Origin: Bilabrum cf. latius | Lineage: Eukaryota | DNA length: 64,000 bases | Direction: 5' to 3' | NCBI GenBank assembly: GCA_965178125.1 | Contig: OZ237773.1 | Location: 310,001-374,000, forward strand | Shown here: positions 1 to 64,000 of the stretch, one piece after another | Layout of the letters: the number at the start of each line of letters is the position of its first letter | How positions within the stretch are numbered: position 1 is the first letter of the stretch | Notes under the pieces: model-generated | What the model saw: only the letters and a program-made list of their open reading frames with translations | Database searches by the model: none | Told to the model about the DNA's origin: nothing | Position numbers and translations under genes: made by a program

Positions 1-2609
1 CCCTCCGGACCTGCCCGTGCCTCTTTTCCAGCTCGGCAAACACCAGCCACAGGGGCAGGGCGCTGGCGAGGCCTTGTTCCCCGCCCTCTCCCGCGGCAGC
101 CACGGCCTCCTCGCAGATTTCCCTGGCCCTCTCCAGCTTGTCCAGGCGACCCCCAGGAGCACCCAGCACGTCGATCGAGGCACCAGCCGCTGCGGCCACG
201 GCGGGCAACGACGACGAAGATGACGAAGATGATGATGAGGACGATGATGATGACGAAGCAGCACCGGTACCTGCCCCCCCGGCGCCCTTGGTGTGGCGCT
301 TCACGAACGCCCCGATGTAAGCCAGCCACAGGTCCCTCTGGTGCGGCCAGCCGAACGCCGCCACCCCCCTCTCATACACACGGAAGGACTCCTCGAACTC
401 GTTGTGCGCCTGCAGATACTCTGCGTGCTGCAGCACCATGGCCGCCGTGGCCACTCCCAGTCGAAGGCACAGCGCATGCGCCGCCTTGACCTCATCCACA
501 GTGCCCAGGGACTCCTCCAGGTCGAGGAACAGCGCCCACACGCGGGGGTTCAGGTGCAGCCGGTCTCGCGCCGAGGTTTTGCCACCCCCGTGCAGTCGCC
601 GGAGAACCGCCGCCGAAGGTTCCCTGACGGCCTCGGCGGCCACCGCCCGGGCCTCCTCCAGTCTCTCCTCCCTCACCTCCAGCTCTGCCAGGGAACAATG
701 CACGGCGGCCAACTGGTCCACCCTCCTGAACGATACCTCAATGGCGCGCCGGAGCACCACCCTCGCCGATTCCGAGTCCCCGTTCCGCTCGTAGAGCCCT
801 GCAAACGCGATCCACAGCTCTTCCAGCTTGCCAACCGCCTTGCCCGGGTCCACCGCCTGCGTGGCCTCCTGAAACGCAAGCACTGCCTGGTCCGGCCGTC
901 CCTGCTTCTCGTACAGCTGTGCCCTGTCCAGCCACTCCTACACGCTCTGGGGGTTCTGCCTCAGCCGCACGGAGGACAGCAGCAGCGGCCGCCTGGCCAC
1001 GAGGACCTCGAGCCGCTCCATCCTGAGGGCGAGGTCCTCCTTCCCGGCCTCCAGCTGGGCCAGCTCTTTGCCCTCGATGTCGCTGGCCCCGCGGTCACCA
1101 GGCGAGTCCCCGCCCGCTGATGCCGATGAGGACGATGCAGACGCACCAGCTGCCTTGTTGGAGCTGTCCTATTCGTCCTCGTCCTCGTCCTCGTCCTCGT
1201 CGTCATCGGACACCTCTCCCGCAGCGAGCAGCAGGGTCTCCTCAAACCGCACGTAACTATCGTACACGGTCGCGAAATCCCTCACCGTCATGACGGCTTC
1301 GATCCCCTCCTCGTACACGTCTCTCGCCCGCTCGAACCTGCCCTGCCTCGAGTGCCAGTCCGCCAGCGCGCACCACAGCCGGCCCACCTCGTCCGAGAAC
1401 CTCCGGATGCCCGAGCGGAGCACCTGCTCCACATTCAGCGAGCGAACCTTCCCCGCGTGCTCCGACACGGTCGCGCACAGCCGCAGCCACAGCTCGTGGT
1501 GGGACCGCCCCCGCTTGCTGACGAAGGAGGGGTCGTCCACAGCGCGCGCCAGCACGAGGGCGCCCTCGTCCACGCGGCCAAACCGGAAGTAGTACTCGGC
1601 CAGCCGCTCGAGCTGCTTGGGGGCGAACTCGACGAACCTTCGCAGCAGCAGGGCACCCGACCTTGGGGGGACAGCCGGCTGCCGCCTCCAGTCGATGCCC
1701 AGGTGCCTGCGGACCGCCCGCTCGTCCCGTCTCAGTTGTTCCCTGGCCTCGGTGTCTTGCGCGGAGGCGCCCTTGGCTGCGGCGGAGGAGGACGATGAAG
1801 TTCCGCTGGATCGCGCGGCGCCGGTGCCGAGAAGTTCGCCGCGCTCGTCGACAGCACCCTCATCCTCGTCGTGGTCGTCATCGCCGCGCTCCGGTGGCAG
1901 CTCAAGGGACGGTACCTCGTAGGAACCGTCCTCCAGCATGCGAGGGGGGTCGGATGTTTCTACGAAGCGCACGACCGCTGGCCAGACGTGGTCGTGCTGG
2001 GTGACCGGGAGGGCTGCGAGCGCCCTGTCGAGCGTCTTGCGGATTTGGGATACTTTCCGGCGGCGGCAGAGCAGAGCGATGTGATCCCTCCACACAACAG
2101 GCATTTTATGCATGTATACCAAGGCCCGCTCAAAGACGTCGGACAGGCGTGCGAGGCGCGGGGAGGAGGGATTGCAAGCACTTGTTTGCTTGCTGCGCTC
2201 CCGCAAGTATCGCTTCCATAGCTTGTACGATCCTGGCAGGCACCGCAAGGAACGCTCGTACAGGTAGTTTCTAACCTGCAAATAAAGTTGGGTGGAGCAC
2301 GATGGGCAACACCGTAACGGAGGCTGTTGCCGGGCTGCATCCCAATAGTGACAGTTGTCATGAGCCAAGCCTTCAAATAGGGAAACGATCCTGCACGACT
2401 ACTACATTTGTTCTCCATTAAAATTGATAGTATTATTATATTCTCACCGGAGGGGTTGCATCTCTTTTTGAGCCCAAATACTCCAGCCACAGCGACAGGT
2501 CCAATGGATTCCGCTTAAGCTGCTCCTCAAACGACACGTCGTCTTCGTTCAGCTCTAAGGTTCCAACTGCTGCAACGTCGATGTCGGTACCTCCGCGCAG
2601 TTGCGCCAT
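1..2609 (-). CDS. SYF1: Pre-mRNA splicing factor SYF1/XAB2 (HAT repeats); 3' end runs off the window start
   Basis: Exon 1 2609-2448 (EDDVSFEEQLKRNPLDLSLWLEYL), then GTGAG..GCAG intron 2447-2276. Exon 2 has YERSLRCLPGSYKLW, FSDEVGRLWCALAD, RRPLLLSSVRLRQNPQSV*EW, DLEESLGT and FEESFRVYERG, all recognisable XAB2/Syf1 motifs. In-frame TAGs at 1169 and 938. Confidence 0.93.
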
Positions 2610-2717
2610 CTCGCCAAATGTTGTGCTGGGCGGCAGCTTCTCGTCGCAACGGCTCCGATTGCCAATCATTTATGCCTCACCGATCCGTGCTGGTGGGTCT
2701 GGTCTATTTGTCGTGGC
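2610..2717. promoter_or_regulatory. Putative bidirectional promoter between SYF1 and the PhyH gene
   Basis: Only 108 bp separate the divergent ATGs; no specific motif identified. Confidence 0.45.
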
Positions 2718-4003
2718 ATGGCTGCTGTGTCCGACAAGTGTCACGATACGCTGTACTCTAAGTATACTAGCTCAACATCGATACCAGAGACAGATGGAGG
2801 CCCTGGCTGGCACCCCAGCGCTGACCAGGTAGAACAATTTCGCATGGCTGGTTGCATGATTGTGAGAAAGTTCATCACGACTGAGGAGCATAAGAGGCTC
2901 AGGTCGGAGTGCGATCGAGAGGATGGTGTGAAGCAATTCGCATTTGAACGAGATGATGGAGAGGGTCGGAAATCCAAGATGTGAGGAACGGCTCGATGTC
3001 AAAAACAGTTGCACTTGTGCGACTCGCGTCGTATCCGTACACTCGAGACATTCCACGTGCCAACAATTTACGTGCTTATTTTCGCCGCTTATTTTCACAC
3101 AGGTCGTTGTGGTATACTCCAGGCGAAGATCTAACAGGTGCATGCGGCCGCTCAGAGCGGGCCATGGCACCAGCCGATGCCTTCGTGGGGGGTCCTGTGT
3201 ATCACCACCACACAAAGCTGATCATGAAAGACGCGCGTACTGGAGGACGGTTTGCACCACACCAGGACAGAGGATACTGTGAGCTGATCGGTGCTCGTTG
3301 CCTTTGGCCTCCTGCGGACAAGACGTGGAGTCCACCATCCCGTTGTGCCACCAGCATCAGAAAGTATAGTCCCACATGCTAAACGCGACAAGATTAATAG
3401 CCCAAACCATGTTCATACTTGTCTCCAATCACCGCAGGGCACTCCACTGGTATGCTCAGGCCTCACGCATGCACGCTGATGGTGGCGCTGGATGACGCCG
3501 ATGCCGAGAACGGGTGCCTGCAGGTCTGGCCCGGGTCACACCAGTGCGGCGTTCTACCGCATGGGTCAGTGGGTGGCCAAACAGGACTGCTACCTAAGTT
3601 TGCCGAGGCGGTGGCCCGCGATTACGAGCGGCATAACGTGGTTCTACGGGCGGGAGACGCGTGCTACTTCCACTGCGATCTGGTGCATGTGAGCCAGAGG
3701 AACGGCAGCGACCGAAGGAGATGGTGCTTTCTGGTGGCATTCAATCGCAAGGACAACGAGGATAGGTGGAGGAGACACCCAGCTTCATCTCTCTCGATCG
3801 AGCGCTCCCCGGATGATGCCTTCATGAAGGTTCCCTGCGGGCTTCCAGTGAGCACGGCGGTGAAGGACTTTATGGATTTCGAGGGGAAAACCGAAAAGGA
3901 ACGGGGAAGTATCGATGGAGGAGAACGCAAAGGGCACGGTGAGGCCGATGTTGCTGCTGCCAGTGGCGGCAAGGCTGCTCCGAGCGAGCAAGTGAGCAAG
4001 TGA
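2718..4003 (+). CDS. PhyH-family Fe(II)/2-oxoglutarate dioxygenase (ectoine/proline hydroxylase-like)
   Basis: Exons 2718-2980, 3103-3278 and 3438-4003, joined by phase-compatible GT-AG introns. Motifs YHHHTKLIMK, HQD (HxD), ENGCLQVWPGSH and FHCDLVHVS..N.S.RRR. Ends TGA; no internal TAG. Confidence 0.88.
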
Positions 4004-4187
4004 GCAAGTGCTCCTCCGAGACTGAGGGCAGGTGAGCAATGCCCTAAAGCTTGGAGGCATGATGCGCTATGCACGATAATAATTATAATCATATCACAAT
4101 TTCCTGTGCCTACGGTCAGAGATATCATTCATCACTCAGATTTAGATAATTTAGCACTGCCAGCGTACGGGCAGTGCCAACCTTCGC

Positions 4188-5929
4188 TCAGTCCCCATCG
4201 TCCATTGGCTCGCTCCAACCGCAGTCACCTCCCCCATCTACGCGTGCTCCATCATAGTGTCGGCCAGTAGACTGGTTCCCCGCCGCGGCCCATCGACTCA
4301 TCGATTTCCTCTCTGCGATCCTCGCCGCCATGGCGGCCTGCAGCCGCACCTCCCTTGCCCTCCGGATCTCTTCCCGGGCCGCTGCCTCTCTGCGTCTAGC
4401 CATCTCTTTCAGCTGCCACTGTCTTTCCTCCAGTGCGTGCTGGGTCCTTCGGCGAGCCAAGTCGGCCTCCAGCTGCTCCACTTCCGCCCAGTGGGGAGAC
4501 GACCTGCCTGCATCGTCGTGCGGTGCACCCAGATGTAGCGTTGACTCCAGCAAGACAGCGTGCGGTTTTCCTACCTCGGGCGACTCGTTGCTCATCGTTT
4601 GAAAGCGAACAGGCCTGCATACAGCAGTCCTCTACCGCAAGGCCCAAGAGTCCCGCAGCACTCCCAGCATGCCACCATCCAGCGCACTGGCTCGAAGGTG
4701 GTGATGTGCATCCGATGCGGCGCCTCCACCCCATGTCGGTGCTGTGGCAGCAACAGAGATGATAGTGGGCCGTGCTGCTCCCTGGGCGGCGTGGGCAACA
4801 GAGCTGAGCTGCTTGGGGGCGGATGCAGCAGCTGCTGCTCGGGCTGCTTGCGATGCTGCGATGGATCCGCGTGAATTTCCGTGCGCGCCTTTCCTGAGAC
4901 TCTGGTCGCCTCTAAAAGCACCGCTGCTCCATACCTGCTGCCCTGCACCGCCACGATGAGGCCCCCAGGTCTGACGCAGGGGTTTCTGTGGGAAGGGAGC
5001 GCTGGGTGGCCCTTCGGCGTGCCAGTCTCTGCCGACTTGTTGGCCATTGCGGAGGGTCCACTGCCTGTTCTACGGGCCCCAGTTGTGTTTTAGTGAGCTT
5101 CCAGCCTCCGACGTAGTCTGCAGCTGCGAGGAGGCTGTCAGTTGGGAGGACGTTGTCGTGGCAAGCGACCTGCTCGACGTAGAGGCTGTCGTGATCGAGT
5201 CGTTTTTTCCGGGGGCACTACGGGGCATGGGAGCGATGGGCCCCGATCCAGTCCGACTGCTGAGGAATGCAACCCGCCCATTGGTAGGCGCTTCCGGTCC
5301 CTGCAGCTGCGGCCCGCTCCCGGTCTCTTCCCACTGGGCTGCTGGTTGCCCTGCCCCTCTCCCGGTCTCTTCCCACTGGGCTGCTGGTTGCCCCGCCCCG
5401 CTACTGGACGATGTGAGGGCCACGGGACTATAGTGGTCTCGCAGTTGGGTGGACACCATGGGCATGGGACCCGGGAAGGTGCAGTTTTGCATGACGCCTT
5501 CGTGCTGGAGTACCCCCCCATGCTGCCTGCTGCTAGTGGAGGCGGCGTCATCGGCCGGCGGATGCACCGGGCCGAGACCCAGCCCCTCGAGCCCGCTGCC
5601 CATGGAGGCGCCCGAGCCCGGGCGAATGGAGTGAGGGTCGTCCAGGCTGTCGCTGCTGATGCTTCCATTCGGGGAGAACGACCCCCGAGGGTAGGACATC
5701 GCCACCTGCGCGCCTGCGCGGCTCGTGTCGTCAAGCATGCTGTGGTCGTCCATGTCCCAAGCATTCCCGGTGCCTGCAAGTGAGACTCCGCAAAGAATTA
5801 ATTGGAAAATAGTATGCAAAATCTGATGCAAGTCAGTACCCTGCGTATTATTAGAGTGGAAGACTCACCTGGAGCGGCACCCGCCGTTGACGTCTGCTGC
5901 TGCTGAGGACCGACTGCTGGAGACCTCAT
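4188..5929 (-). CDS. Unknown low-complexity protein with C-terminal coiled coil (paralog A)
   Basis: ATG 5929, intron 5868-5774, then one frame to TGA 4188 with TAGs at 5070 and 4632. Long blocks are near-identical to 17575-20176. Confidence 0.7.
5317..5399. repeat. 42-bp tandem duplication (GAGQPAAQWEETG x2) inside paralog A
   Basis: ctcccggtctcttcccactgggctgctggttgccc occurs at 5317 and 5359. Confidence 0.9.
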
Positions 5930-6550
5930 TGTCTGCGAGATGCTTCAGGCTTAGCACATTTATTATAAGCATTAAATTTTGAAGGGGAAACAGTCGATGC
6001 GCTTTATGACAGGAAGAGAGAGCCTTGCTGCATCGCGGACATCAGTAGCTATCCTCGCCTGCCCAGTACTATGAGCCCATCCAAAGTCTACTTCAAGAAG
6101 CAAAGCAGACTAATCGTTACTAAAACTTCAAAATTAAGTAATTGTCACAGTGCATCTTGACTGTCTCTGATATTTGGGGCGATATAAGCGCATCCACCCA
6201 AGGCACCTATGCCCACTCCACAAGCTTGGCAAGCTGTGAATGCTATTGAAGCTACCCTCTAGGACATAGAATGCAACTCACAAAGAAGTTTGGTAACAGA
6301 TATAACTGCAGTGGGTTTTATGTGCTGGTATCAAGCGGATTAGGTGACAAATAGGGTGCGCACCAAAGGGTGTCACAACGTGATGGCAGTGGTGAAAGCT
6401 CCACTCGTCGGCTCCGAGTCGTTCAAATAGGTTCCTTCGGGTTCGCTGAAGCTTCGTTCTCAAAGAATTCTTTGGCATCTCCTGTGCATTCCCAGCAACG
6501 GATAGGATTGAGCACGCTCCGAATTCGCATAGTCATACTATATTGAGTAC

Positions 6551-9500
6551 ATGGCGGGGAGCAAGGCTGCTGAAGACAAGCCATTGCAGGACACTTAGCC
6601 GCTGAGCACAACAGTGGAATCAGCGGGGCCTGCTCCAGTTCCTCGACCACTGCCTGCTCCGGACAAGGTTCGCGGATGGAAGTATTTTAAGGATGTTCTG
6701 GGGTCCCCAAGGCTCTGGGTGGCACCGATGGTTGAGCAAAGCGATCTCGGGTTTCGAATGCTGTGCCTGCACTGGGGCGCTGACATGGCGTGTGTGCACA
6801 TGCTCGTCCCCAAGCACATTATGCAGGACACCCGGCACTCAGTTTTAAGAAATTGCTGGGCCGAACGGGACGAGAAGCGAGGTCACGGCCCGATGGTCGA
6901 CGGTTTAGGCGTAGTTCCAGTGGGGCCGATCACCGCTGAACTTGCTGCGGCAGAGGCCGAGAAAGCGAAAAAGCTCGGCGCAGCAGGTGCTAGTGCAAGA
7001 CCTTACAAGCCTGAGTAGCTCGATCCAGCGGGTTAGCCGAGCAAGGCCGCAGACCAGATCGCATCCATACGGAGGGAGGCTCTCGCGCGAGCAAGGGCCA
7101 GGATGTTCGCCCTCCCGGCACAAGAAGGCCCCATACACGAGCGAGCATCGCTTCGAGCACCGGGGAAATCGCCGACTGATCGCGATATTGACCTCACGTG
7201 GGGCCCCGGCAGATCCCCTCACCAGCTCGGGCTCCCGCTTCCGCCACCGCTGCCATCGTAGGTCGAAAGAACGGGTGCAAGCGCAGGCCCGTCGTCCTCG
7301 GCATCTCCAACCGGCGGCCCTACGGACTCCTTCGCACCAGCCCATGTCTCGTGCCTCTCAGAGATGCCACCCCTGCCGAGCCAGGCATGCACTCGTCACA
7401 CTGAGATGACCTCGTACCTGCAGCGGCACTGCGACAACAGGTACCTCCACGGCGCCCTCTCAACGTGCCCAGAAGAGGTCAACTGCTCCATCCAGGTGTG
7501 CGGGCACGACCCGAAGCTCGTGTGCCCCGCCGCCCAGCGGGCCGTGGCCCACGCCAGGAGGCTGGGTGCCAGGGTGGTCGCGGTGGACCTGAACCTGGGG
7601 TGTCCGCAAGGCATCGCCAGGAAGGGCAGGTACGGCTCTTTCCTGCTGCCAGAGTACCCTGTTGCCGCTGACGTGGTCCGGTGCCTGGATCGAGCGCTGC
7701 CTGACGTGGCAGTCACCGTCAAGATCAGGTGCCTGCCTACGATGGGAGAGACGCTCAAGGCTGTCAGGGCACTCGTCGACGCGGGGGCCGCGCTCGTCAC
7801 AGTGCACGGCCGGATCCAGCCGAACAAAGGCCCGCACATCGGGAACGCCGACTGGCGCGCCATCGCCGAGATCGTGCGCAGTTTCCCCGAAGTACCAGTG
7901 GTCGCAAACGGATCCATGGTCACTGGGGGTGACATCCTCAGGTGCCTGGCCGCCACGGGGGCAGCTGGGTGCATGCTCAGCGAGGGCTGCCTCGGTGACC
8001 CGGGTGTGTTTTACAGGGCCAAGGTACTCGCCAGGAAGCTGGGGTGGCCCAGCCTGGGAGCCTGCTCCCTCCATGAGCGAGCCGCAGGTGAAAGGGGAAG
8101 GGGGCCGCCTGGCTCCCGGGCGATGGGTGGGGAGGCATCTGATGGTGCTGGTGCTGGTGCTGGTGCTGGTGCTGGTGCTGGTGCTGGTGCTGGTGCTGAG
8201 GGCAGCAGCAGCGGAGCCGAGGCACTTTCACGCGCCCTGTTTGACATGGGAAACAACGACCTGGCCAAACTGGCGCCCAGCCGCCCCCACGAGGTGGATC
8301 TTCTGGAGGACTACGTGAGGCATGCCCGAAGGTACGGCACCGATCGGAGCGCGTTCACGAGCCACGTCAACAAGCTCGCCCACGCCCCCTTCCTGGCCTG
8401 GCCCAGACTCAGGTCCATGCAGTACAGCGCCTGGAGGCACGATGAGCTGCACTGGTACATCCTGGCTCGGCTGCAGGAGGATTCGGTCGCATGCGGGACC
8501 GGGGGGGACGGCGTCTCTGGGAATGATTCGTCCACGCCAAAGGTGGAGCGGAAGTTCGACGTGGACATGTCGCCCGAGGCCATCGCAGATCGCAAGAGGA
8601 GGGGCGTGGACAAACTCGGCAACCGGATTGTTCCCCGGGCACTGAAGAGCGAGAAGGAGAAGAACAAGCACAGGGCCGACACGTTCGTCTCCGGGAGGGG
8701 CCTCTTCGACGCGATGCAGGCATGCGTGGTGCAAGCTGGCATGACGATCAGCAGGAACCAGAGACTGTACGTGATCCGATCCGATGGGTCTCAGGCCAGG
8801 CATCTGGGGGAGGGCAGGGGGGTGTGTGCGGCAGCGCAGGCGGCCATCGCTGCTCTCAACAAAGAGAAGTCTGCAGCCATCGGCGCGCTGGCTATGGGTG
8901 CGACAGCGGACGAAGCTCCGCAATCTGACGGTCCTAGAACCGGTGCGGGAGCCCCGAGCGCAAGCTCAGCAGCTTCATCATCGTCCTCGTCCTCGTCATC
9001 TTGCTCATCATCGTCCTCGTCTCCTTCTGCCACCTCTAGTTCAAACCCGAGTCAGGCCAAGGCGCCCGAGATCCAGCGGCCAGAGGGGAAGGAGCCCTTC
9101 TGTCTCATCAGCGGGGTGCCAGTGTACGCTGGGGATCGCATCGTTGTTCCCTCGAAGCTGTACCACTCGATCGGCTCCGACTGGGCCACACAGCACCATG
9201 CGATGCAGATACCGCCCGCCTCGCTGAGTCTTGTGTACGAGACGATGGACGAGGTGGTGTAGATCATGCGGGCGAGGCTCAGGGAACACGGGGCGGGTTG
9301 CCTGACCATGCTGAGCAAGAGCAGGGCCAGAGAAATGGGGCTGCAGGTAAACGGCGCCAATCCGCCTAAGAAGAAAACCAAGGGGAAGCAGCAGCAGCAG
9401 AAGTAGCAGCAGCAGGCCGCACCGGGTGCAGCCCATGTTGGTAGTGCTCCATCCACGGAGCCACCGACAATGCCTGCTCTCGCGTCCACTGCAGGGCACA

Positions 9501-10009
9501 TGGATCCGCTGACTCGGGTGGGCGACTCGCAGTCCGGCGAGACCTCGGGGAACCTCGCGCGGTCGACCGACGCCGCCATCGTGCCGATTGCCATCGCGTG
9601 GCCGGAGGTGGGCGGGTGGTACTACAGGTACCGGCTGCACTCCCAGCCGCAGTGCTCAGGCGGTGCCAAGCTCGAATCCAAGCCGCCCAAGAAGAAGAAG
9701 CCAAGGGAGGAGAGGAGAGCTAGGGCGGTGGTGAGGAGGGAGGCCATGTATGGCGTGGGGGGCAGGGGGTCTCTTCACAGCGGTGGGATCCAGGAGCAGG
9801 AGAGGCTCAAGAGCATGGAGGCGGCCAGCGGGGCAGGCGCCGCAACGCACTCGGGTGATCTGCGATCTCACAGCATCGGGTCTGGAGCAATAAGCGCTGC
9901 ACCGGCAGTTGCTGGATCCACCCGATCGGCGCCAGATGCCATGGATGACGCGGCTGGAGCTGCGGGGGGTCAACCAGCCAGCAAGAAGCCGAGAGTAGAA
10001 ACTAAGTGA
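6551..10009 (+). CDS. DUS1: tRNA-dihydrouridine synthase, DUS1-like (about 1152 aa with long insertions)
   Basis: One frame from ATG 6551 to TGA 10007, with TAGs at 6596, 7016, 7034, 7259, 9260 and 9404. Motifs APMVEQSDLGFRMLC, DLNLGCPQGIARKGRYGSFL, VTVKIR, TVHGR and ANG. Confidence 0.88.
8144..8197. repeat. (GGTGCT)9 microsatellite encoding poly-Gly-Ala in DUS1
   Basis: Read directly from the sequence. Confidence 0.95.
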
Positions 10010-10164: not shown

Positions 10165-11118
10165 TCACGAAGCCTGCTTCGGCCTATCGATTCCCTTGTC
10201 TCTTGCCAGCTGGCACACCTTCTTCAGTAACCGACACGACCCCTCCCACTCTTCCCCAGCAAATGCCTCAAACCTCTCGAACCAGTCGTTCACCCGTGGC
10301 ACCTCACGCATGCGCTCCTCGAAGTCGCCGAGGGCCTGCATGGAGGCAATCTCCGAGGCGAGGCTGACGTCAGCGATGCTCGCATACTGCGTACCTGCCA
10401 CCCATGGGCCAGACCATGACGAAGGAGGTGCTTCATCAGTGCTGGAATGCAAGTTGTGTGCAGTGGGGCCGTCTGCCAGGCGGTCCAGGCGGCCCTCGAG
10501 CTGGGCAAGTGCTCGGGCGAGCACGCGCTCTCCGCGCTCGATCGACTGCTCGCTCCTGGTAGGTAAGCCACCGAGCGGTCCCATTACCCTGCCAAAGGTT
10601 ACCGGTGCAGACCCAGGCCGCAGCGCGCAGTGCTACCAGTCAAGGTGGGCATCAATAGATGCCTTGCCCTGCAGATCGTATCCCGCGTACCAGTGGTGGC
10701 TCACTCCGAAGGCAGGCTCTGACGAGAGATACCTAAGAATTGCGTGGGATTCAGAAAGGACAAATGGCGCACTATTTGAACCATCTGCGCCGTTCCCGGC
10801 CTGTTCCTCGCTAATCACCTCAATAACTGGAACTTGTCCCATTGGAGAGAGCTCTGCGACAGTGTGCAAACCCCATCATGATATGAATGAAGCAGAAGTT
10901 TGGTTCCGACACAAAGATCTGCTCTACTACGACCTCCATAAACGAATCTTACTTCGAAACCATTCTGTTCTGACGTCTCCCTTGGCGATCCTAACAGTCT
11001 TGAAGTCAGCATGCATAGATTTCGTTGATTTCATCAGGAAGTACACTGCCCTGGCCGGCTGCGAAATCAAGTCAGCATACAACCTAACGATACGTTTGGG
11101 ACCATGATTTCGGAGCAT
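10165..11118 (-). CDS. Glutathione S-transferase, theta class
   Basis: Exon 1 11118-10953 (LYADLISQPARAV), intron 10952-10854 (GTAAG..GCAG), exon 2 LSPMGQVPVI..LSESHAILRYL..LDW*HCALRPG..SIADVSLASEI. One TAG at 10633; ends TGA 10165. Confidence 0.9.
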
Positions 11119-12612: not shown

Positions 12613-12663
<51 letters not shown>

Positions 12664-17574: not shown

Positions 17575-20176
17575 TCAGGCCTGCCTGCCTCTCTTCCTGT
17601 CAGGCTCCTCTGAGCCCGAATCTACTTTTAAGGCGTCCTCTTTGCGAGATCGCTTCGTGCCAATGCTACTAGGATCTTCTTTCGGATCCATATGTGCTCC
17701 GTATTCCATGCTCTGAATGCCAAAAGCAACGCTATTGGCGTTCGTTGGTGACCCTACGTGCACCCCGCGGGGCCTACGTGGCCTAACCGTTGAAGATCGC
17801 CCAGCCATTGTTAACTGCAGGCGCATGGGTTTCCCGCCATGATTGGATGTTCCACCCAGCCTGTCGGCACTCAGCAACCCGCGTGCCTGACCGCTGCCGC
17901 TAGCCCCGTCGCTGTCGCTGCGGTTAGAATCCGCGTCGCAGTCGCTCTCATGCGCATCTTGCTCTTCCTCGCCACAAGGACTGCTCGATCGATGTCCCTT
18001 CGGTGTCGTCGATTTCCTCTCTGCGATCCTCGCCGCCATGGCGGCCTGCAGCCGCACCTCCCTTGCCCTCCGGATCTCCTCCTGGGCCGCTGCCTCTCTG
18101 CGTCTAGCCATCTCTTTCAGCTGCCGCTACTGCTCCTCCAGCATATGCCTGGCCCTTAGTCGAGCCAAGCCGGCCTCCAGCTGCTCAAGTGCTTGGTTGT
18201 CCGGCAACGACCTGCCTGCACCATCGTGCGGTGCACCCAGATCCAGAGTAGACTCCAGCAAGACAGTGTGTGGTTCTCCTACCCCGGGCGTCTCGTTGCG
18301 CACCGTTTGAAAGCGGACAGGCCTGCACACAGCAGCCCTCTACCGCTAGCCCCAAGAGTCCTGCAGCACCCCCAGTGTGCTCCCATTCAGAGCACTGGCT
18401 CGAAGGTGATGATGCGCATCCCATGCGGCGCCTCCACCCAGCGCCGACTACACGGGACCCGCTCCCGCATCAGAGATCCCGGTATATTCCACGGAAGCAT
18501 TGGAGCTTGATGCACTTGCTGCTGCCGCAGCAGCTGCCATCGATGCAACACGGGCTGCAGCCCTGGCGGCAAAGGCAGCGCGTGCTACCGCTGCAGCAGC
18601 TTCGTTCGAATGCCCGCTCCTATGCCTGTCGGCACCATGCAGCCCGATGTACGCATTGCTGCTCTAATGCATTGGGTCCTGCTGCTGTGGAACGCGCTGT
18701 CCACCCTGACCCTGACTGTACACCCCTTGCGCTTCGTGAGTGCCCCACGACCTCATGGTAGTGTAGCTCGCGCTAGGGCCTGTCTGCAGCTGCGAGGGCT
18801 CTGCTGTCGAGTGGGAGGACGTTGTCGTGGCGAGTGACCTGCTCGACGTGGAGGCTGTCGTGATCGAGTCGCTGTACGAGAGGGCACTACGGGGCAGGGG
18901 AGCGATGGGCCCCGATTCAGTCCGACTGCCACCGCTCCGATCCGAATTGGCTTGCAGGTGCTGCGCTGTACTGTAGCTGTACCCGTAGGTCTCGCCGTAG
19001 GAGACAGAATCCGGCGGCTGCATGATTCCGAGGGTGGAGCGGGGACTTCTCCCTTCCCTGCCGCCCACTTGGATACATGCACCCTGCGATGGGTTGCTCT
19101 GTAGTGCTTGCGATGCATTCCTGCCTCCGTGCAGTCCATTCTCGCTGCTGCTGCTGCTGCTGCTGCTTATGCTTTCCATGTAAGGTGGCTGCCCATGAGG
19201 ATCTTGGTGCCCCTAGGGCTGCTGCTGATGCTAGGATACGTGGGGAGTCACCGGAGACAAGGCGCCACCCGGCCCAATCATCAGGCTGCGCGCGCTGCTG
19301 TACACAGATCCGATCATCAGGCCTGCAACGGGAGGGGGCACCTCCTCGGCGTACCTCGGCGGCAGGGAGCGGAGGGACTGCCCGCTGCCCGAGAAATTTG
19401 AGCTGATCTCGGACAGAGAAGGCGGGGGGGGCTCCGGGGGCCCGCCGGCCCACTTGCTGTCGGCGAACATGGGGCGGTTGGAGGAGGGGCCTGCCTGGCC
19501 AGTGAGTTGTTCCCCAGCTGCTAGCATGGAGGGAGGAGCCGGTTCCACCTGGCGTAGTGACCCGTACTGGTTCTCTACCCAGGGGACCGGTCCTTGCTGT
19601 TGCCCTTGCTGCTGCTCTTGCCATCGACCGGCCCCTCTCCCGGACGATGAAAGGGGCGTGGAGCCTTGGTGGTCTCGCAGTTGGGTGGACACCATGGGCA
19701 TGGGACCCGGGAAGCTGAGGCCCTACGTGGATCCATCCAGCTGAGGATACCCCCCATGCTGCCCGCTGCTGGTGGAGGCGTCGTCATCGGCCGGCGGATT
19801 CACCGGGCCGAGACCCAGCCCCTCGAGCCCGCTGCCCATGGAGGCGCCCGAGCCCGGGCGAGTGGAGTGAGGGTCGTCCAGGCTGCCGCTGACGATGCTT
19901 TCATTCGGGGAAAATGACCCTCTCATGTGGGACCGTGCGCTGTGCACTCCCCCGCTCGCGCCATCGAGCAAGCCGTCATTGTTGTAGTCCCAGCGGTCCT
20001 CGCTGCCAGCTCGAGCGGCTCGACCACCTGCGAACCAGTTCAACAAGCAGCTGAAACAATTATAATAATATAGGGCGAATGTGCTTCGATAGCATCTCAA
20101 AGAAGCTCTCGCGAATCTCACGGTGCGATGCCATCAGCTGCGGTGACTGTTCGGCGTCTTTGTGCGGAGAACTCAT
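17575..20176 (-). CDS. Unknown low-complexity protein (paralog B)
   Basis: ATG 20176, phase-1 intron 20121-20028, then one frame to TGA 17575 with TAGs at 19723, 19231, 19213, 18664, 18448, 18346, 18340 and 18127. Same exon layout as paralog A and shares sequence blocks with it. Confidence 0.72.
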
Positions 20177-36500: not shown

Positions 36501-37353
36501 ATGTTAGTGCTGGTGCTGGTGCAGGGGTGACAGGTGTTACCACCGCTGTGACCGGCCCTGCCGCCGAACTTGCAATTGCCGCGCTGGTGCTGGTGCTGGT
36601 GCTGGTGCTGCCGGATGCGCCCTGGCCCGCCCGACCCGCCGCCAGCTTGCCCAGCCCGAAGCGGGAGAGGAGTCCCCCGCCTCCCTTCGATCCAGAGAGC
36701 TTGCCCAGCCTGCTCGAGATACTGCCCAGCAGCGAGGACCCGCTGCCTGCGGAACCGCCGGGAGGTGCCTGCGCGGCGCCGGTCGCGCCCGCACTAGGAG
36801 CCTGTGAGCCAACCGCGCTGCCTACTTGCGTTACATCATGCGACGGGCGCGGTTGCTATGTTCCGAACCCGCCTATTTTCGCCAACCGGCTCGCAACGCT
36901 CGATGCGAGGCTCGACTGGGAAACCGACGCAGGGGCAGCTGTGGCCGAAACGCTTGATGATGCGCTGCTCGGCGCAGACCATCGCGTGCTCTGCGCCACT
37001 GGGCCAAGTTGTGATGCCGCTGGTGGAACGTACGATCCAATTGGGCGACCAGGGAATCCAGAGCTTCCTTGCAGGCGGTACCCGCCGTAGCTACCTGGCA
37101 CGGATGGCGGACGAACAGCGCCAGCGACTGGGGGCGCATACCCCCCGCGAAACTGAGTGTAATTGGTATTACCATGTGGGCCTCCAGGTGGCGCGTAGCC
37201 TGGCTAGCCTGCGGGGCGCGGTTGGTACCCTCCTTGCTGGAACGGTTGCGGTGCCCCACGCCCTCGGGGTGGCCGGCCGTATCCTGAATACTGCGACGCA
37301 TTGGATCCTGAAGGAACATACCCACCACCCCAGTGAGGTGGCTAATTGTTCAT
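30562..37353 (-). CDS. Very large unknown protein (about 2263 aa, intronless) with a G/P/Y/Q-rich N-terminus and charged low-complexity blocks
   Basis: Nine ORF-track fragments share one frame. ATG 37353 to TAA 30562 with 15 internal TAGs (37342, 37204, 36856, 36073, 35515, 34330, 34267, 34150, 33898, 33619, 33223, 33178, 32764, 30820, 30625). Confidence 0.72.
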
Positions 37354-37502
37354 GATTCCTTCGCGCACGTGTTGGATATTATTGCTGGGCTTTTTTACTT
37401 TCTGTCATCCAAACAGTTCGCTACTGAATCAATAAACCAGACTACTTTTCCCCGCACTTGCAGGACTGATTGAATTCTGGTATCGCTACTGCCAGTGCGT
37501 CC
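37354..37502. promoter_or_regulatory. Putative bidirectional promoter between the giant ORF and the carboxypeptidase
   Basis: 149 bp AT-richer spacer between divergent ATGs. Confidence 0.45.
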
Positions 37503-55956: not shown

Positions 55957-58900
55957 TCAACCCACCGAGTCATGGTGAACTGCGCTGGCTCGAAACAGGG
56001 ACAGCCACTGCCTCCGTGCCCTGCCTTCTGCCTTCTAAAAGGCCCTCCAGCGCTTGATCACTCGCTCCCATGCCATCTTCCTGGTGAGAGCCGCTTCATA
56101 CGACCAGGTGAAATCCCGCAGGTCCTCAGAGATGCCCCACCTGCCCATGTTCAAGGCACCCAACTCGCCCTCTCCCGCCCCCTCACCTTCGCCATCACTC
56201 TCCAGATCCTCCCAACTAGCCATTGCGCCTCGCAGGATCTCATCCCAGTCCCCATCGCTGTCCGGCTCCCTGAAATCCGGATCTGCTGCCCCCTGCAAAC
56301 TAGTGTAGAAAAGCTATCCCTCCCCGTCCAGCCGCTCGCACTCACGCATCAATACCCTCAGTGCATCGTGCGCGCCCCCGCACACCATGGCGGCAATCGG
56401 ATACTCCCCATCCTTCCAGCGGCTGCCTGTCCATGCCCCGCCGTTCCTACCGGAGCCAACTTCCTCTGGACTCACGTTGCACCCGCTCTCCAGCCCAGTG
56501 GCCATGCCATCAATGAGGACGGCGAGGGGCAGCACTGCCACGGCCCCCTCTTGCGGTGCACCGTCATCCATCGTTGCAACGTCCAGGAGATCCGCTCTCG
56601 CCAGATCCTCGACACTACTCGCTGCGACCACCTCTCGCTTGAACCGATCCAGTGCATCGATGCAGAACTAAGCTGCATCCATCCCGGGGGTGTCTTCTGG
56701 AGCGCACAGAGAGGATGCATGATGGCTGGAAGGGGTGCCCCAAGCTGCTCGTGACAGTCTGGCGTGCCTCGGTGTGGCAACGCCCCGCTTTGCAAGGAGC
56801 TTGCCAAGCCACCACTGCCACTTCGGCACGCCCTCCACGACCTGCAGTGCCCTGCGCATGGCGATGGCAAGGTGCTCGGGTCCATCGGCGCCCTGCCTGA
56901 CCCAGTCCTGAAGAGGCTACAGCCTGTGCCACGCCTTGGTGCTGTATCTCTGGCCCTCGATCGGGCCACAGCTAGAGGATGCCCCTCCTTCAAACTACCT
57001 GTTGGACCCAGCCAGACTGTAGTCCACTATGGCTTTCACGAGGCATCGCCCGCCCGAGCTTGCTGCATCCTGCGTGCGCTTCTTGAGCATTTGGTGCTAG
57101 TCGGAGAATCGGCCCGTGAGTTCCAGGCTGAACGGCCGTGCGGGTCTCCCCATCGTCATATCCCGTTCTGCAAGTGCCTGCTCGTTGTCCCACTGCGATG
57201 CTAGCGTGCTCGTGTCGAACCACGCCTGGGCCATCTGAGGTGACTGGCTGCACGCGTGCGCGATGGTCGCAGATTCCAGCCATCCGCAGGTGCACTCCTT
57301 GGGCATCATTCTGTCGATGTCGGGGACCTGAATGCGACGGAGGTTCGGAGACAACCATATGGCCCCGAACACCGAGCCGTGCATCTGACCCTTCTTCCAG
57401 TCGCGGTCCAGATCCACCTCAGGCCTGGCGTCAGGCGAGTCGCCACGGCGGAATACAGGCGCGAAATCAACGTGCAGTTCTCGGAGGCGAGCATGCATGG
57501 GAATAGCACGGCATACAGCTTTGGCTAGGGATGAAAGCTTTCCCGAATACGGCCCCGGGTTGTGCTCCTAGATCCACAGGCTGATCAGGCTATCGTTCCA
57601 CTGGAGCATCGCGGACACGTCGGACTGCAGGCCCTTGGGAAGGTCCCGTAGCTCAATGTCGGTCACAGATTGGGTCAGCACCAACCCGCGAAGCATGGCT
57701 GCTGCGCAGTCCTTGCCCGCCTCGGGGTCCCTCAGGTGGAATACCTTGAGCCTCTTGGAGCGAGCGAGCGCCGCTCCCACTGCCTTGGCTGCTGCGAGGG
57801 GCCGCCGCGTTTTCGAGATCGTGTCGCGCAAGTAGAGTTTCTGCACGGGAAAGTTGTGCTCTATCATACCGAACAGCAGGTGAGCGAATGGGCTGTTCAT
57901 CTTCGTACTGTTTATGTTGAGCAGATGCCCGGCGCTCCCTTTGCTGCTCGGCTGCGGCGGAAGAATCGGCTCGCGGACTCGCGAAGGAAGCTCAAAGCTG
58001 CAGCCATCTATGAACACATCAAGGCGCTTGGTACCGCCCAATAGCGTTCCGAAAAAGTCAGCTAGGTGATTGCTTCGCCAAATGCACCGCACCATGTCAA
58101 TTTTTGCTACCGACTTGGACTGTGCAATTGCTCTTGCTAAGCCCTCCTCGGGATCCGCACAGACAATATCACAATTGAGCAGGTTCAGCTTGCTGACCCT
58201 GCGGCTCTTGGCGAGCAGGCTCGCAAATTGTGCCAGAACTTTTTGATCGTCGCGCTGTACTTGAATGGACAACGTACCAATTGAGACCCGCTTCCTTGCA
58301 GCCTAGCGCAGCATACGACATGCTGCTGTACATGATACTATACCCTGCGTGCACATAATCCTTGACGCGTTGGTGACAGTTCTGGCATCGATGGAGGCGG
58401 GGTTTTCAAGCAGCGGCATACCAATTGCAAGGTTTACGTGCTTACAACAACACCAGGCATACCAAGTGCAGACATAATGCTGGTATTGAGACGTTCGGGG
58501 CTTGAACGGCCCGAGGTTTCTATCCCAGGCTATCGAAAGCGTTTCAAAAAAGTGCCGCTCGCTTTCCCTTCAAGTTGGTTCCGGTTTACGGGGATCGGCG
58601 CAGCCTCTCGGCAATAACCGGATCTGTAGTCCGTTCCCAAAAGGTCAGCAGTGGTTCCACTAAATCTCTTGCCAATCGAAGCGAGCCTATGTCTATGGAC
58701 CACCACATCTCGTAGCCGTCCTCTGTGTCACTCCTGGGCATGAAGAACCTGTGCCGCCTGTTACATACACGGCGGTCTGTAGTGGCTGAACAGCCCGAAC
58801 GGGGCGGGCTCGTGGTTGCCAACCCTGGCCATGTAGAGCACTCGCACCACCACCGACTAGATGCGGCTCAGAAACGTGTCTACGTCGATGCCAACATAGT

Positions 58901-59156: not shown

Positions 59157-59543
59157 ACGCGAAACCTCCGACTTTTCTCGTCCACCTCTATTTTCTCTCT
59201 CTCACATATTATATTATCTCTCTCCCGCTGCACTGCGCGTAGACCAGGATCTCGCCACCCGTCTGCGCGTGCCGCCCCATGTCTCCTTTCCATTGAACAT
59301 TCGGCTCAAATTAGTAGTAATTTTTCAATTTCACTTTTTTTCTTCTTGATGGTTTTAACACGCAACAAAGCACCTCATTTGCTCCGCCGGAGCCGCCGTG
59401 CCGCTCGTGAAGCGCGTGTCGCCGGCAGCATCCAGCCCTTCTGCTTTGTATACAACAGAGTTTTGTAAGTTTGTCGACCACAGTCGCCAAATTCAACAGA
59501 AGCTGTTGTATTACCTATTTGAAACCTCGAACTTGTGATAAAC

Positions 59544-62321
59544 ATGCGTTCATTGGCCCTTGGCGTGGTTGTAGCAGCCTTGAGCGGCGGTTCGCTCGCT
59601 CATGGCGACGGCGGCACATGCCGCCACGACGAGTTCGTTGACAGGATATTAGACCACCATATCGAAGACATGAGGCTCAGGAAGGCAGGAGCATCCGCAG
59701 GAGGGTCTGCTGAATAGTTGCCGGTCGGAAAGGTTCCTCTGTCCAAGATTGGGAAACCGCTTGCAGGAGCACCGACTACGCACGCGCACGACATCCTCTC
59801 CTCCTCCGGAAAAGGTTTGCACATGCTCAACATGTACAGTCCCGCACGGGACGGGGCTTCTGGTCCCGGTGGCATCCGTTTGGCGTCCGAAGTAGACCAA
59901 ACGTCCGGGCAATGGCGGCCGCTTCGCCTCAAGCCAATCTTCTTGGATTCCCTAGATGCCCAGTCATCCAAGTTTTTGAACGAAGAAGTGCTGCCCACCG
60001 TGATTTCCCGAGTCGGTGAGATGCTGTCGGTCCCGGTGCGTAGCGAGCCGCTGTTCGCGCACCGTCGCTGCGAGCGCTTCTGGACCAACCAGCAGCCATG
60101 GAGGTGCAACGAGCTGGAAGACGCGAGCGAGAACACGTGCGGGAGCACCTCGGAAGATGCGACGCCGGTGCGCCTCAACGCCTCGTGGTTCGGCGCCGAC
60201 GAGTACTACGCGGCTCCCACTGGCTCGGCCACAACCATCCCAGCGGGCGTGGGCCTGGCCGACGCGGACGTTGGGCTGATCGTCACGGCGCGCACGGTGA
60301 GCCCCTGCCAGGCCTCGACCAGTGCCGCTGGAGGCACCCGCGCTTTCGCTTCTTTCTGCCAGAGCGACCCCGCCACCGACAGGCCTACGTTCGGGCGCGC
60401 CAACGTGTGCCCCGCCGAGCTCCCCGCCCCCGCCTCGGGGACGGGGGCCCAGGCCACGTGGCACCAGACGGACATCGATGGCTGGATCAAGACCCTCACG
60501 CACGAGACCTTCCACGTGCTGGGCCTCAGCTCCACCTCCTACGCGCTGTACAGGGACAGAGAGACGGGGAACCCCCTGACGCCCCGCAGCGAGGACCTGC
60601 CCTCCCGCCCTGCAGATTCGCAGGAGATCAAGTACCAGTGCCAGGGGTCGGAGAGGACCTTTTACGTGGCTTCCACCAACACCGTGAACCTGTACTCCGA
60701 GCGGGGCATGGATTGCACCCAGTTCTCCGAGGTCATCACCGAGGGCATGTTCAACTGCGTGCAGAGGGTCGTGGTCGAGCCAGCCCAGGAATCCGCCAAG
60801 TCCTTCTTCGGCTGTGAAAGCATCCCCGGAATCGAGCTCGAGAACCAGGACACCACCCCGTGCGTGATCCACCCCAGCCACACGGAATCAAGGGTGGCTC
60901 GCACGGACCTAATGAACGCGGTCAAGCGGGAGCACAGGGACGTCACCGCAGCGTCTCTGTCCATCCTAGACTCATCGGGCTGGTATACCGCCAACTACTC
61001 GGCGCTGAGCCCCATGCTCTACAACCGCGACTTCGGGTTCCAGGCGGGGTGCGACTTCGCCGTGGGGAACAAGTGCCTGCAGCCGGGCAACCCCCCCACG
61101 GTGGCCACCAGCACGGGGGCGGCGGGCAACCCCCTCACCCCGCACTACTGCACGGAAAACTCGGGCGATGGGCTCTTCTGCACGCTGGACCGCAAGTCCA
61201 TCGGCAAGTGCTTTCTAGAGCGCCAGTTCGGGTCAGACCTCCCCGAGCAGTACCGGTACTTCACCAGCAACGCCAGGCTGGGCGGCTACATCCCCGCCGA
61301 GGCTGACTACTGCCCCATCATCGAGTCGTTCACCCAGGCGGCGCAGGAGGAGGGTGGAGACACCACTACCACGTCGTGCACGGACCCCCGCAACCTGGAT
61401 TCTCTCGCCGGGTCAGAGAACGTCAGAGGCATGACCATGGGCGCGGGATCCGTGTGCCTGGACACGTCGCTCGAGAAGGACGGCTGGAGCGGGGGCCTGC
61501 CCTTGGGCTGCTACGAAGTAACGTGCACTTCAAGCCCCGTCAAGGTCGTGATCTCTGTGCCGAGCACGTCTGGGTCCGGGTTCGTGTCCGCTGAGTGCGA
61601 GCAAGAGGGCGACGACGTGACCTTCACGGGATACAGCGGGGGCGTTACGTGCCCCAGTCCATCGGAGGTGTGCCAGGAATAGCTGGGCGTGCGGCCAGGC
61701 CCGGGGGCCGGGACCGTTGCCGCTGTGACGAGTGACGTGGATGTGTTGTACTCGTCAGGCACGGCCACGGTGTCGGTGGAGAGGATCGGCGGTTCCACAG
61801 CCATCTCGATGCTGGTCCGCACTGTGGCTGCCGACTCGGCCCAGGCGGCCGCGGCGGGGATCCAGTCCACGTACACGGTGGGTGGACTGACCTCCGCAGT
61901 GGCTGTGGAGGGCACTGACTACAACAACGCCACGCAGGTGGTGACCTGGGCCGAGTCCGAGTCCGGCTCCAAGGAGGTGGATATCACCCTCCCGAGCGGC
62001 GGGGGCCCTGTGGCCGCTGGCGTGGACGTGCTTGTGCTGGGCGTGGTGCTGGAGCAGGCCCCCGGTGCACCCGAGGAGAACCAGCCCGAGGTCGCAGCTG
62101 GTCGCCAGGGCACTCGGGTGCTGCTCTTCAACGTGCTGCCGTCCCCCTCTCCCGTGCCCGTGCCGTCCGCTTCCCCAAGTCCCTCGTCAGCGGCTGGGGG
62201 CTCCGGGGAAGATGACGACAGCGGTGCACAGACTGGTGCGCTGGCGGTTGGCGCGGCCATGGCATGTGCCGTGGGGGCTGTAGCTGCCCTGATGGCTGGT
62301 GCACAGGCGGGTAGGGACTAA
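59544..62321 (+). CDS. Leishmanolysin/GP63-like M8 zinc metalloprotease with Calx-beta-like domain and GPI-type tail (about 925 aa)
   Basis: Signal peptide, propeptide CRHDE, RPTFGRANVCP, HETFHVLG (HExxH), SHTESR..DLM, DSSGWY.ANYS and ADYCP. TAGs at 59715 and 61680. Hydrophobic C-terminus, then TAA 62319. Confidence 0.9.
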
Positions 62322-62634
62322 GGATGCTAGGATTGGATTGAAGCTGGCTCGCTGGGGATGGAAGCTTGCAGTACCTTGAGCCGTTTTTTTGGTTTTCGGG
62401 GTGTGGCTTTGTTCTCTATTGTAGTGATGTGTTCGACGTTTTGCCAGGCGTGTTGGGTGGTTTGATTGGCTGTGGGTGCGCAGGCTTGTGCTGTGCCCGT
62501 TGCAGAGCAGTGCTCGAGCTCGAGCAGATTAGATCTATCCTATGGATTCATGTCACCCCGACTTGAAAAAAATGCAGTCAACCTATCGAGTGTGAAATTT
62601 ACCGGATGATTGACTCCGTTGTGCAGTGCACATT

Positions 62635-64000
62635 TCAAGTAGAGCTCGACCCCGTGCGCCACCCTCCCAAGGCAGCCTGCAATGCGACCACCCTGCAGAC
62701 ATCATGGTAGAGGCACATCCCACCCGTGGCATCATACACCACGCAGCACCCGCCGAGGGGAGGCGCTGCGAATCCTCCATGAACCTCTTGGTCTCCAGCC
62801 ACCTCCTCACCCTTACCTCCATCTCCAGAAGCTTCACCAGCAGCGGCTGCTCCCGATGCAACTTTACCCTCAACACTAGTAACCCGAAGGTCATCACCAT
62901 CGTCACTATCATCACCGTCGACCCCATCTCCCATCCACCCGATCGGTACCGCCCCCTGCAACCCCCTTGGAGCCACGAGTCCGTTGCACCCCTGCTGCCC
63001 GTGGTCAATGCGGAGCAGAGGCACACCGCAGTGCAATGCACCATCCGGGTCCGTGTCACGATACGCACCGAGCACTCCTCGCTGGCCAGCAACCCCCGCC
63101 GCCTGTTCGCCTTTAACTTTAACGCCAACAGGTGAGGCATCTTCGTGTTCTCCACTTTGGGCTGACGCATCGGCACCTCCACCTTGCTCGGTTCCATCCT
63201 TTGCAACAGCACCTCCACCTTGCTCGCTTCCATCCTTTGCACCGGCACCTGGCTCATCTCCCACCTGAACCTCCTCGCCACCTTCAAGCATTTCTTCTTC
63301 TACCGCCGCCTCGACTTCCCCCCTCACCACCAGCTTGCCGTCAATCCCGAGCGTGCACTGCGCCCGCACCACCTCCAACGGACTCTCCCGGCCGAGCGAT
63401 GCAAGGGCTTCCAGCGCCGAAACACCGCCGCCTGTGAGCTTAACTGCGTCGCTGCCTGGTTCGCCGCCTGTACCCTCCTCCGCCTCCTAGTCCTACAACG
63501 CAAGCTCCCCGGCACGTTCGCCCGCACCCACTGCACGCGCAGCAATCGCCCCAAAATCCACTGGGCCCAGGTACACCGCCCCGCAGCATGCTCCTGGGTG
63601 CCCCCCCGCGAGGCGACGGAGGGGCTCAACGGATACTTCCGGGCAGTAGGCCCCCACCTCCTCCTCTGCCCCCTCGCTTGTGCCCCCGCTGCCCCCTGCG
63701 CCCAGGGACACTGACAGTTCCGCGGCGGTGCCATCGCCGGCAGCCACGAGCACCGTGCACGCCTCCCTGCACTCGTCATCCTCCGCACCCCCTACGAGTG
63801 CCACCGAATGCGGAAGCGGCGGATTCAGCACGCTCGTGCCTGCGCACAGCTCCTCGGCGTGTCCAGTGGCTCGGCCGATGTCTGCACCCCCCAGCTTGCG
63901 AAGAGAACCCCCCGCCGCAGCAACTCGGAGCGGGTACTCGTGCGACGAGTGTTCCGCACCACCGTGCAGTGCAGCTCCCTTCAGACCCCAGCACTCGATC
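62635..64000 (-). CDS. 3' part of an unknown protein (possibly WD40-like) that starts beyond the window end
   Basis: Frame open from the window end to TGA 62635 with TAGs at 63493 and 63487. The GH-containing beta-rich segments are only suggestive of WD40. Confidence 0.55.

Follow-up and report, generated by a model that had tools for sequence, protein, structure and literature searches.

Gene content of the window

The DNA analyzed here, referred to throughout as the window, comprises 64,000 nucleotides of contig OZ237773.1 of the Bilabrum cf. latius assembly GCA_965178125.1 (positions 310,001 to 374,000 of the forward strand), and the subject of the analysis is the meaning of the codon UAG in the genes which it carries. 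The window comes from the nuclear genome of a GC-rich eukaryote with few introns, since it encodes the spliceosomal protein SYF1 and contains two GT..AG introns; its G+C content is 56-68% across 4-kb bins and approximately 61% overall. A preliminary description, made from the letters alone, had proposed an intron-containing GC-rich eukaryote in which UAG is a sense codon, and both parts of this proposal are upheld, the second by frame counts, by homology and by conserved domain sequence flanking TAGs in SYF1, dihydrouridine synthase (Dus), GST theta, leishmanolysin and formin. It is almost certain that UAG is an ordinary sense codon of this nuclear code, and it is probable that UAG specifies glutamine (Gln, Q), as in NCBI table 15, with UGA as the main terminator and UAA as a minor one.

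The features of the window are presented in Table 1. Ten genes with evidence beyond the length of their open reading frames (ORFs) form the supported set: SYF1, Dus, GST, M14, the FH2 formin, M8, g17, P0001, par1 and par2. This evidence consisted of Pfam or PDB matches for the first six, of protein fragments from a relative of the organism for g17, P0001 and Dus, and of paralogy for par1 and par2. Seven of the 16 long ORFs rest on length alone and were excluded from the core count; together they hold 33 in-frame TAGs, and their codon-position G+C is less clear-cut than that of the supported genes.

Table 1. Features of the window, with in-frame TAG codons and terminators.
Feature	Coordinates	Strand	In-frame TAG	End	Remarks
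SYF1/XAB2 splicing factor, second exon	2..2273	-	1169-1171, 938-940		runs off window start
SYF1 intron	2274..2445	-			172 nt, GT..AG; holds two TAGs only seemingly in frame, not counted
PhyH-like dioxygenase exon	3398..4003	+			Pfam PF05721, E 1.9e-16
par1, lineage-specific family	4188..5864	-	2 (5070-5072, 4632-4634)		
Dihydrouridine synthase (Dus)	6551..10009	+	6596, 7016, 7034, 7259, 9260, 9404	TGA	
GST theta	10168..11118	-	10633-10635	TGA	exon 1 11118-10953, intron 10952-10854, exon 2 10853-10168
g5	11431-13230	+			length-only ORF; no Pfam match
g6	13596-14867	+			length-only ORF; no Pfam match
par3	14984-16723	-			length-only ORF; no Pfam match
par2, par1 paralogue	17575..20133	-	8	TGA	
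g10	23499-24782	-			length-only ORF; no Pfam match
g11	25414-27390	-			length-only ORF; no Pfam match
g12	27640-30000	-			length-only ORF; no Pfam match
P0001, 2280-residue low-complexity protein	30562..37404	-	15	TAA	no known family
M14 carboxypeptidase-like membrane protein	37470..43103	+	5	TGA	Pfam Peptidase_M14, E 4.7e-22
g15	44235-45953	-			length-only ORF; no Pfam match
Formin, 2493 codons	47912..55393	-	13, 7 of them upstream of FH2	TGA	
g17	55957..58569	-	8	TGA	family not recognised
Leishmanolysin (M8)	59523..62321	+	residues 65, 720	TAA	Pfam Peptidase_M8, E 4.1e-32

The earlier claim that conserved domains continue across TAGs was substantiated in several of these genes. SYF1, for which 212 homologues were found, the best of them 43-45% identical, carries the Pfam HAT_Syf1 N, M and C domains (E 1e-41 to 1e-64), and its two TAGs fall in the interval between M and C; an upstream exon within 2446-2669 codes for the SYF1 N-terminus. 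The Dus domain (Pfam Dus, E 1.6e-42), which belongs to a protein with long insertions and a C-terminal extension, opens before the TAGs at residues 156, 162 and 237 and resumes beyond all three. The sole in-frame TAG of GST, a gene with a GT..AG intron of 99 nt, separates its two GST domains and is crossed by the alignments to GSTT2 (E 1.7e-11) and GSTT1 (E 7.6e-07) in the PDB. In leishmanolysin the signal peptide is followed by the first TAG and only then by the catalytic domain with its HExxH motif; searching the PDB with the M8 protein gave 0 matches at E 0.001, and both M8 TAG sites are uninformative. The FH2 domain of the formin (Pfam FH2, E 1.7e-47) occupies residues 1569-1950. Domains indispensable for function thus stand 3' of TAGs, so these TAGs are, as judged from the order of domains in the encoded proteins, translated.

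Frame distribution of TAG, TGA and TAA

On the two strands of the window together the stop triplets number 1464 TGA, 821 TAG and 417 TAA, TGA being the commonest. With the standard stops the longest open frame measures 666 codons. Reading through TAG produced longest frames of 2493, 2280, 1877, 1165, 932, 899, 870, 852, 814 and 786 codons, whereas reading through TAA changed hardly anything, the longest frame still being 666 codons. Frames of at least 300 codons numbered 94 when TGA was read through (longest 1189) and 55 when TAG was read through. The many frames opened by TGA read-through reflect the abundance of TGA among the stop triplets, and ORF length alone is therefore no proof; frame-specific counts and homology are needed. 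TGA as a sense codon was considered and rejected, as the homology-supported genes have 0 in-frame TGA and the lengthening stems only from the abundance of this triplet.

Long antisense ORFs were also observed to overlap real genes, at 60662-62701(-) on M8, 11406-13052(-) on g5 and 10043-11107(+) on GST. These reach 679 codons with 10 TAG and are probably spurious in such GC-rich DNA; the length of TAG-read ORFs alone therefore over-calls genes.

Within the 16 long ORFs (approximately 16,800 codons) frame 0 contains 95 TAG, 0 TGA and 0 TAA, while frames +1 and +2 combined contain 200 TAG, 476 TGA and 80 TAA. The zeros for TGA and TAA follow from the definition of these ORFs by those stops. The telling point is the persistence of these open frames over thousands of codons, along with a TAG frequency that is the same in frame (0.56%) as off frame. 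In the supported genes 62 in-frame TAGs, all located 3' of the first in-frame ATG, were counted in 12,007 codons together with 0 TGA and 0 TAA, against about 199 TGA and TAA predicted by the off-frame rate. The preliminary description had spoken of about 100 internal TAGs in 20 of about 22 genes, with up to 13-15 per gene; the maxima were confirmed (15 in P0001 and 13 in the formin) and the total comes near, at 95 in 16 ORFs plus one more in the GST gene. Its statement that the resolved exons lack internal TGA, TAA and frameshifts also holds, TAG being the only interruption of the frames.

Overall TAG amounts to approximately 0.5% of codons in frame, and its placement along the ORFs is flat (11, 10, 8, 8, 13, 8, 9, 7, 11 and 9 by decile). 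With 412 CAG and 93 CAA in the supported genes, it would make up about 11% of the presumed Gln codons. The 15 complete ORFs are closed by TGA in 12 cases and by TAA in 3. That all ORF ends are TGA or TAA is a product of ORF definition; the TGA end of GST matches the length of its PDB homologues approximately. Within the window TGA and TAA keep their meaning as stops and are not sense codons. A code in which UAA is sense along with UAG, as in NCBI table 6, was not seen, with 0 in-frame TAA in 12,007 codons and three ORFs closed by TAA; nor did the supported genes of this window contain the in-frame UGA and UAA of ambiguous codes that read all three stops.

A relative with matching breaks

Protein fragments of a relative (P0127-P0132, P0134 and P0253), obtained from public read assemblies, are 81-97% identical to proteins of the window by BLASTP or phmmer, and identity between relative and window is 88% over 1968 aligned pairs. 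P0127 is 81% identical to g17 over 366 amino acids with no gaps, and opposite the TAG at residue 334 it has Q, with identical flanks. P0128-P0131 match P0001 (82-97% identical by BLASTP), while the Dus fragments are P0132, P0134 and P0253. Three of the relative's fragments end exactly at window TAGs, two at residues 1409 and 2260 of P0001 and one at residue 162 of Dus. In Dus one fragment of the relative ends and the next starts one codon further on, inside conserved sequence. Since the fragments end exactly at three window TAGs, the simplest reading is that the relative, too, reads through in-frame stops and seems to share the code, and we infer that its breaks are themselves TAG. Scans of metagenome, genome and viral contig collections found neither DNA of the relative nor additional contigs of the organism itself, and protein searches found no unbroken counterparts of the window genes, the best SYF1 match being 43-45% identical.

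More distant relatives of Dus (P0287 and P0145/P0289, 46-59% identical) were uninformative at five TAG sites, because those sites lie in unconserved stretches. A more distant relative (P0287, P0288, P0145; 46-59% identical) has an unbroken Dus fragment of 661 residues; the standard code may apply in that lineage, or TAG may simply be absent from the stretch concerned.

With respect to the affinities of the organism, SYF1 identity reaches 43-47% at best, the best named SYF1 matches are scattered over a pelagophyte, green algae and animals at 37-45% identity, and a quick single-gene SYF1 tree placed the query on a long branch (1.4) within a group of 10 environmental sequences. P0096, one of the two SYF1 sequences nearest to the query, is an intron-free, uninterrupted ORF of 769 amino acids on metagenome contigs. 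Its 90% identity cluster includes a protein filed under Symbiodinium sp. KB8 ('fand, partial'), which was not taken as the lineage as the label may be a contaminant in that assembly.

Introns and TAG letters in other sequencing runs

Contigs of other sequencing runs were compared with the window for the SYF1 and GST introns and for the letters at 11 TAGs within 1-11200. A single contig in X5 and another in X6 contain the SYF1 joint 2273->2446, which has a depth of 0 in X1 and X8; spliced copies are therefore present in X5 and X6. At the GST intron, the match of an X5 contig breaks off precisely at the predicted acceptor (10853) and is followed by 161 letters placed elsewhere. Of the 11 TAGs, 9 were read by contigs of X5 and 8 by contigs of X6, in each case with 0 other letters, the two TAGs of par1 being uncovered in both. 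Contigs of both runs span the two SYF1 TAGs and all six Dus TAGs with 0 differing letters, and identical letters were found in contigs from four runs belonging to four studies. As the X5 and X6 contigs carry them unchanged, splicing does not remove these TAGs and editing does not alter them completely.

These results bear on the explanation that the TAGs are not translated at all, being assembly or consensus errors, remnants of pseudogene decay, parts of unrecognised introns or sites of mRNA editing, which we consider very improbable. Nothing specific favors it, apart from the 7 of 16 ORFs without homology support and the compatibility of the contigs with low-level editing. Errors or decay would also bring TGA, TAA and indels, and only TAG interrupts the frames, never TGA, TAA or a frameshift; the probability that all 62 in-frame stops would be TAG under decay at the off-frame proportions (TAG 200/756) is P ~10^-36, which rules out decay, as the preliminary description had argued. 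The same letters recur in the contigs of four runs and four studies; the X5 and X6 contigs lack the true SYF1 intron yet keep the checked TAGs, contradicting the consensus error, splicing or editing which that description had named as possible objections. Moreover, the relative breaks at the same positions with conserved protein sequence on both sides. Some points count against full confidence in UAG as a sense codon throughout. That X5 and X6 are RNA is a guess, X5 having been flagged as 'probably DNA', and contigs drop rare variants, which leaves room for partial or low-level editing. The definition of the ORFs by TGA and TAA similarly leaves room for an occasional role of TAG as terminator. 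ARAGORN and Rfam searches detected neither tRNA genes nor other RNA genes in the window, and eRF1 is not among the proteins encoded there.

Amino acid specified by UAG

Given that UAG is a sense codon, Gln is its probable meaning, favored by the partners of TAG in the relative and the paralogue, by the Gln-like context and by the Q and H facing the GST site. Where the relative reads a residue opposite a window TAG (11 sites), this is Q at 4, E at 3 and K, D, A and S at one each. Between par1 and par2, which are 77% identical over 139 amino acids and 51% over 191, the TAG partners are CAA, CAG, CAG, CAC, TTG and TAG (Q 3, H 1, L 1, TAG 1); the BLAST-supported blocks retain CAA, CAG, TTG and TAG. 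A third paralogue, par3, was dropped as a source of partners as its alignment was too weak (score ~105-127). Combined, the 16 residue partners include Q 7, E 3 and L 1. With substitution frequencies taken from these same relative and paralogue alignments, the partner log-likelihood was best of 20 for Q (-37.2), followed by H (-53.4), E (-55.8) and K (-70.2); for the relative alone the margin was small (Q -27.7 vs E -31.2).

Sequence context gave the same answer. Within 3 residues of TAG, Q is enriched 1.87-fold, E 1.12-fold and D 1.02-fold, as compared with 2.26, 1.05 and 0.88 around true Gln and 1.04, 1.84 and 1.43 around true Glu. Gln was the best of 20 context models in all 16 ORFs as well as in the supported set. 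In addition, the residue aligned with the GST TAG is Q in GSTT1 and H in GSTT2, and the base following TAG is distributed as after CAG. Three residues before the deeply conserved TAG site of SYF1, the organism has Q where 115 of 120 homologues have H.

That UAG is sense but specifies another single amino acid is unlikely. Glutamate (Glu, E) would then be the likeliest, as in peritrich ciliates, Blastocrithidia and the ciliate PL0344, and lysine (Lys, K), histidine (H), tyrosine (Tyr) and leucine (Leu, L) less so. For Glu there are the E at 3 of 11 partners in the relative, one of them in a conserved Dus block (YETMDEVV_) where a distant relative has D, the E residues of the window opposite two fragment ends of the relative, and the acidic runs which several TAGs adjoin. 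His predominates at the SYF1 site (79/120) and is present at the GSTT2 site, and for Leu one paralogue site faces TTG. Set against these are the log-likelihoods given above, and for Leu a value of -88.0, the worst of 20, vs -31.6 for Q in a 13-site partner set; UAG was not found at conserved Leu positions, with Leu at 1 of 16 partners and neither the SYF1 nor the GST site facing Leu. The context of TAG shows neither the E and D enrichment of true Glu nor the K enrichment found around true Lys, and none of the paralogue partners is E.

Several observations weigh against Gln. At the deeply conserved site of one SYF1 TAG, the homologues (120) have H at 79, A at 10 and E at 5, and Q lies outside the eight commonest residues, the rarest of which count 3. 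Other fragment ends of the relative which fall inside alignments face the window residues Q, E and E. Ordinary Q residues are kept in the relative at 118 of 137 positions (86%), whereas TAG sites show Q or a shared stop at 7 of 14, with E at 3. The partners are mostly one-step neighbors of TAG (CAG, GAG, AAG, TCG and TTG), a pattern close to that of neutral change where constraint is absent, and the likelihood figure therefore overstates the strength of the partner test. Finally, only 1 TAG, at an edge, lies in Pfam-matched stretches, vs approximately 7.7 expected (Poisson P(<=2) 0.017), and this near-absence leaves few informative sites.

The varied partners (Q, E, K and others), the poor conservation of TAG sites relative to ordinary Q and the depletion of TAG in conserved domains could also be accounted for by decoding with no dedicated tRNA or single meaning, in which eRF1 has ceased to recognise UAG and near-cognate Gln-CUG, Lys-CUU, Glu-CUC and Tyr tRNAs fill in, or by a context-dependent choice between sense and stop. 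A pyrimidine after a stop codon is a weak termination context, and C is enriched after TAG (25/62, vs 24% after any codon); three ORFs, furthermore, have their last TAG 6-21 codons ahead of the terminator, as might suit an ambiguity of sense and stop. We nevertheless hold such decoding to be quite improbable. Genes with up to 15 TAGs demand very efficient reading, TAG is equally frequent in and off frame and is evenly spread along the ORFs, Q leads both the partners and the context, and the excess of C after TAG is the same as after CAG.

Other features of the window

The lineage-specific family of par1 and par2, perhaps with par3, has several copies within 16 kb, and the blocks shared by par1 and par2 include a conserved stretch at the C-terminus that resembles a coiled coil and has a high content of R, E and A. 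A (CTG)56 array with 98% matches is located at 16083-16250, where the par3 ORF (-) reads approximately 56 serines. The M14 gene contains a 36-nt tandem repeat at 40945-41329 (10.7 copies, 95% matches) which codes for a Ser/Thr/Pro-rich, mucin-like stalk from the M14 domain to the C-terminal membrane anchor. The layout of the formin is unusual, an N-terminal TPR-like region being followed by approximately 1500 residues of Gly/Asp/Ser-rich low complexity and then by FH2, with proline-rich FH1-like repeats C-terminal, 3' of FH2.

Discussion

A simple mechanism can be proposed for UAG as a Gln codon. It would involve a tRNA with the anticodon CUA, charged with Gln, this anticodon being predicted because UAG is read and UAA is not. 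Such a tRNA would most simply have arisen by one mutation in a second copy of the tRNA-Gln(CUG) gene. The release factor eRF1 would have lost or weakened recognition of UAG and kept that of UGA and UAA, and the TAG codons would have arisen mainly by C-to-T change in CAG and by point mutation of GAG and AAG where constraint is weak.

Changes of nuclear codes are rare, and codes which split UAG from UAA are rarer, being known, in the portion of the literature available to us, from a rhizarian, a fornicate, a few phyllopharyngeans and one oligohymenophorean ciliate. If the reassignment described here is real, it offers, in a GC-rich genome in which UGA closes most genes, a test of codon capture, in which UAG first becomes rare, against reassignment while UAG is mutationally favored; if it is also young or unclean, it offers an opportunity to observe a genetic code while it is changing. 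In practical terms, annotation with the standard code would break most long genes, all 17 genes or ORFs examined being affected, and translation of the assembly with table 15 or an equivalent is advised.

Comparison with known codes

UAG is read as Gln, with UAA and UGA kept as stops, in the fornicate Iotanema spirale (PMC5304391) and in the phyllopharyngean ciliates Hartmannula sinica and Trochilia petrani (PMC11687900). For these UAG-only codes, a CUA-anticodon tRNA which reads UAG and not UAA has been argued (PMC5304391, PMC11687900), and UAA is the dominant or preferred stop in Iotanema, in the rhizarian exLh (PMC5304391) and in the phyllopharyngeans (PMC11687900). The present code resembles those of Iotanema, Hartmannula and Trochilia in that only UAG is reassigned, UAA is still a stop and Gln is probable. 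It differs from them in that theirs prefer UAA, whereas here TGA closes 12 of 15 ORFs in DNA of about 61% G+C, and, relative to the Iotanema type, in that Gln is derived from approximately 16 close comparisons and from context, not from hundreds of conserved columns. The multi-kb ORFs and GT..AG introns (99 and 172 nt) of the window seem unlike the gene structure of ciliate macronuclei.

Leu is the meaning of UAG in exLh, whose genes end mostly in UAA (56/71) and in which UAG is rarer in ribosomal-protein genes (PMC5304391), and in an uncultivated phyllopharyngean lineage (PMC11687900). Both are likewise UAG-only, and the rarer UAG of exLh in ribosomal-protein genes resembles the depletion of TAG in conserved domains seen here; in contrast to both Leu codes, Leu is unsupported in the window (1/16 partners).

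Many ciliates, hexamitid diplomonads and some green algae use NCBI table 6, in which UAR is read as Gln. These codes differ from the present one in that TAA is not sense here. They share with it, as does that of the ciliate PL0344, in which UAA is Lys and UAG is Glu (PMC10553269), the change of a UAR stop to Gln (or Glu) by a suppressor-type tRNA, which is predicted in our case.

A further group consists of ambiguous codes that read all three stops, those of Amoebophrya sp. ex Karlodinium veneficum (PMC12005148), Condylostoma and Blastocrithidia. Common to these and the present code are in-frame stops in essential genes which are kept in transcripts; theirs, however, come with in-frame UGA (Trp) and UAA, and this window is without them. 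The genome of the Amoebophrya is described as AT-rich (PMC12005148).

No published description of a GC-rich, non-ciliate eukaryote with a UAG-only reassignment was found in the part of the literature that was searched. Tentatively, and with somewhat less confidence than an even chance would give, the window may represent an independent and so far undescribed UAG-only reassignment in a GC-rich, intron-poor, non-ciliate lineage of at least two members with UGA as its main terminator, in which the poor conservation of TAG and its mixed partners would reflect young or unclean decoding. The UAG-only type of code is itself already known; what is unusual here, in comparison with its known representatives, is its occurrence in GC-rich DNA with genes ending mostly in UGA.

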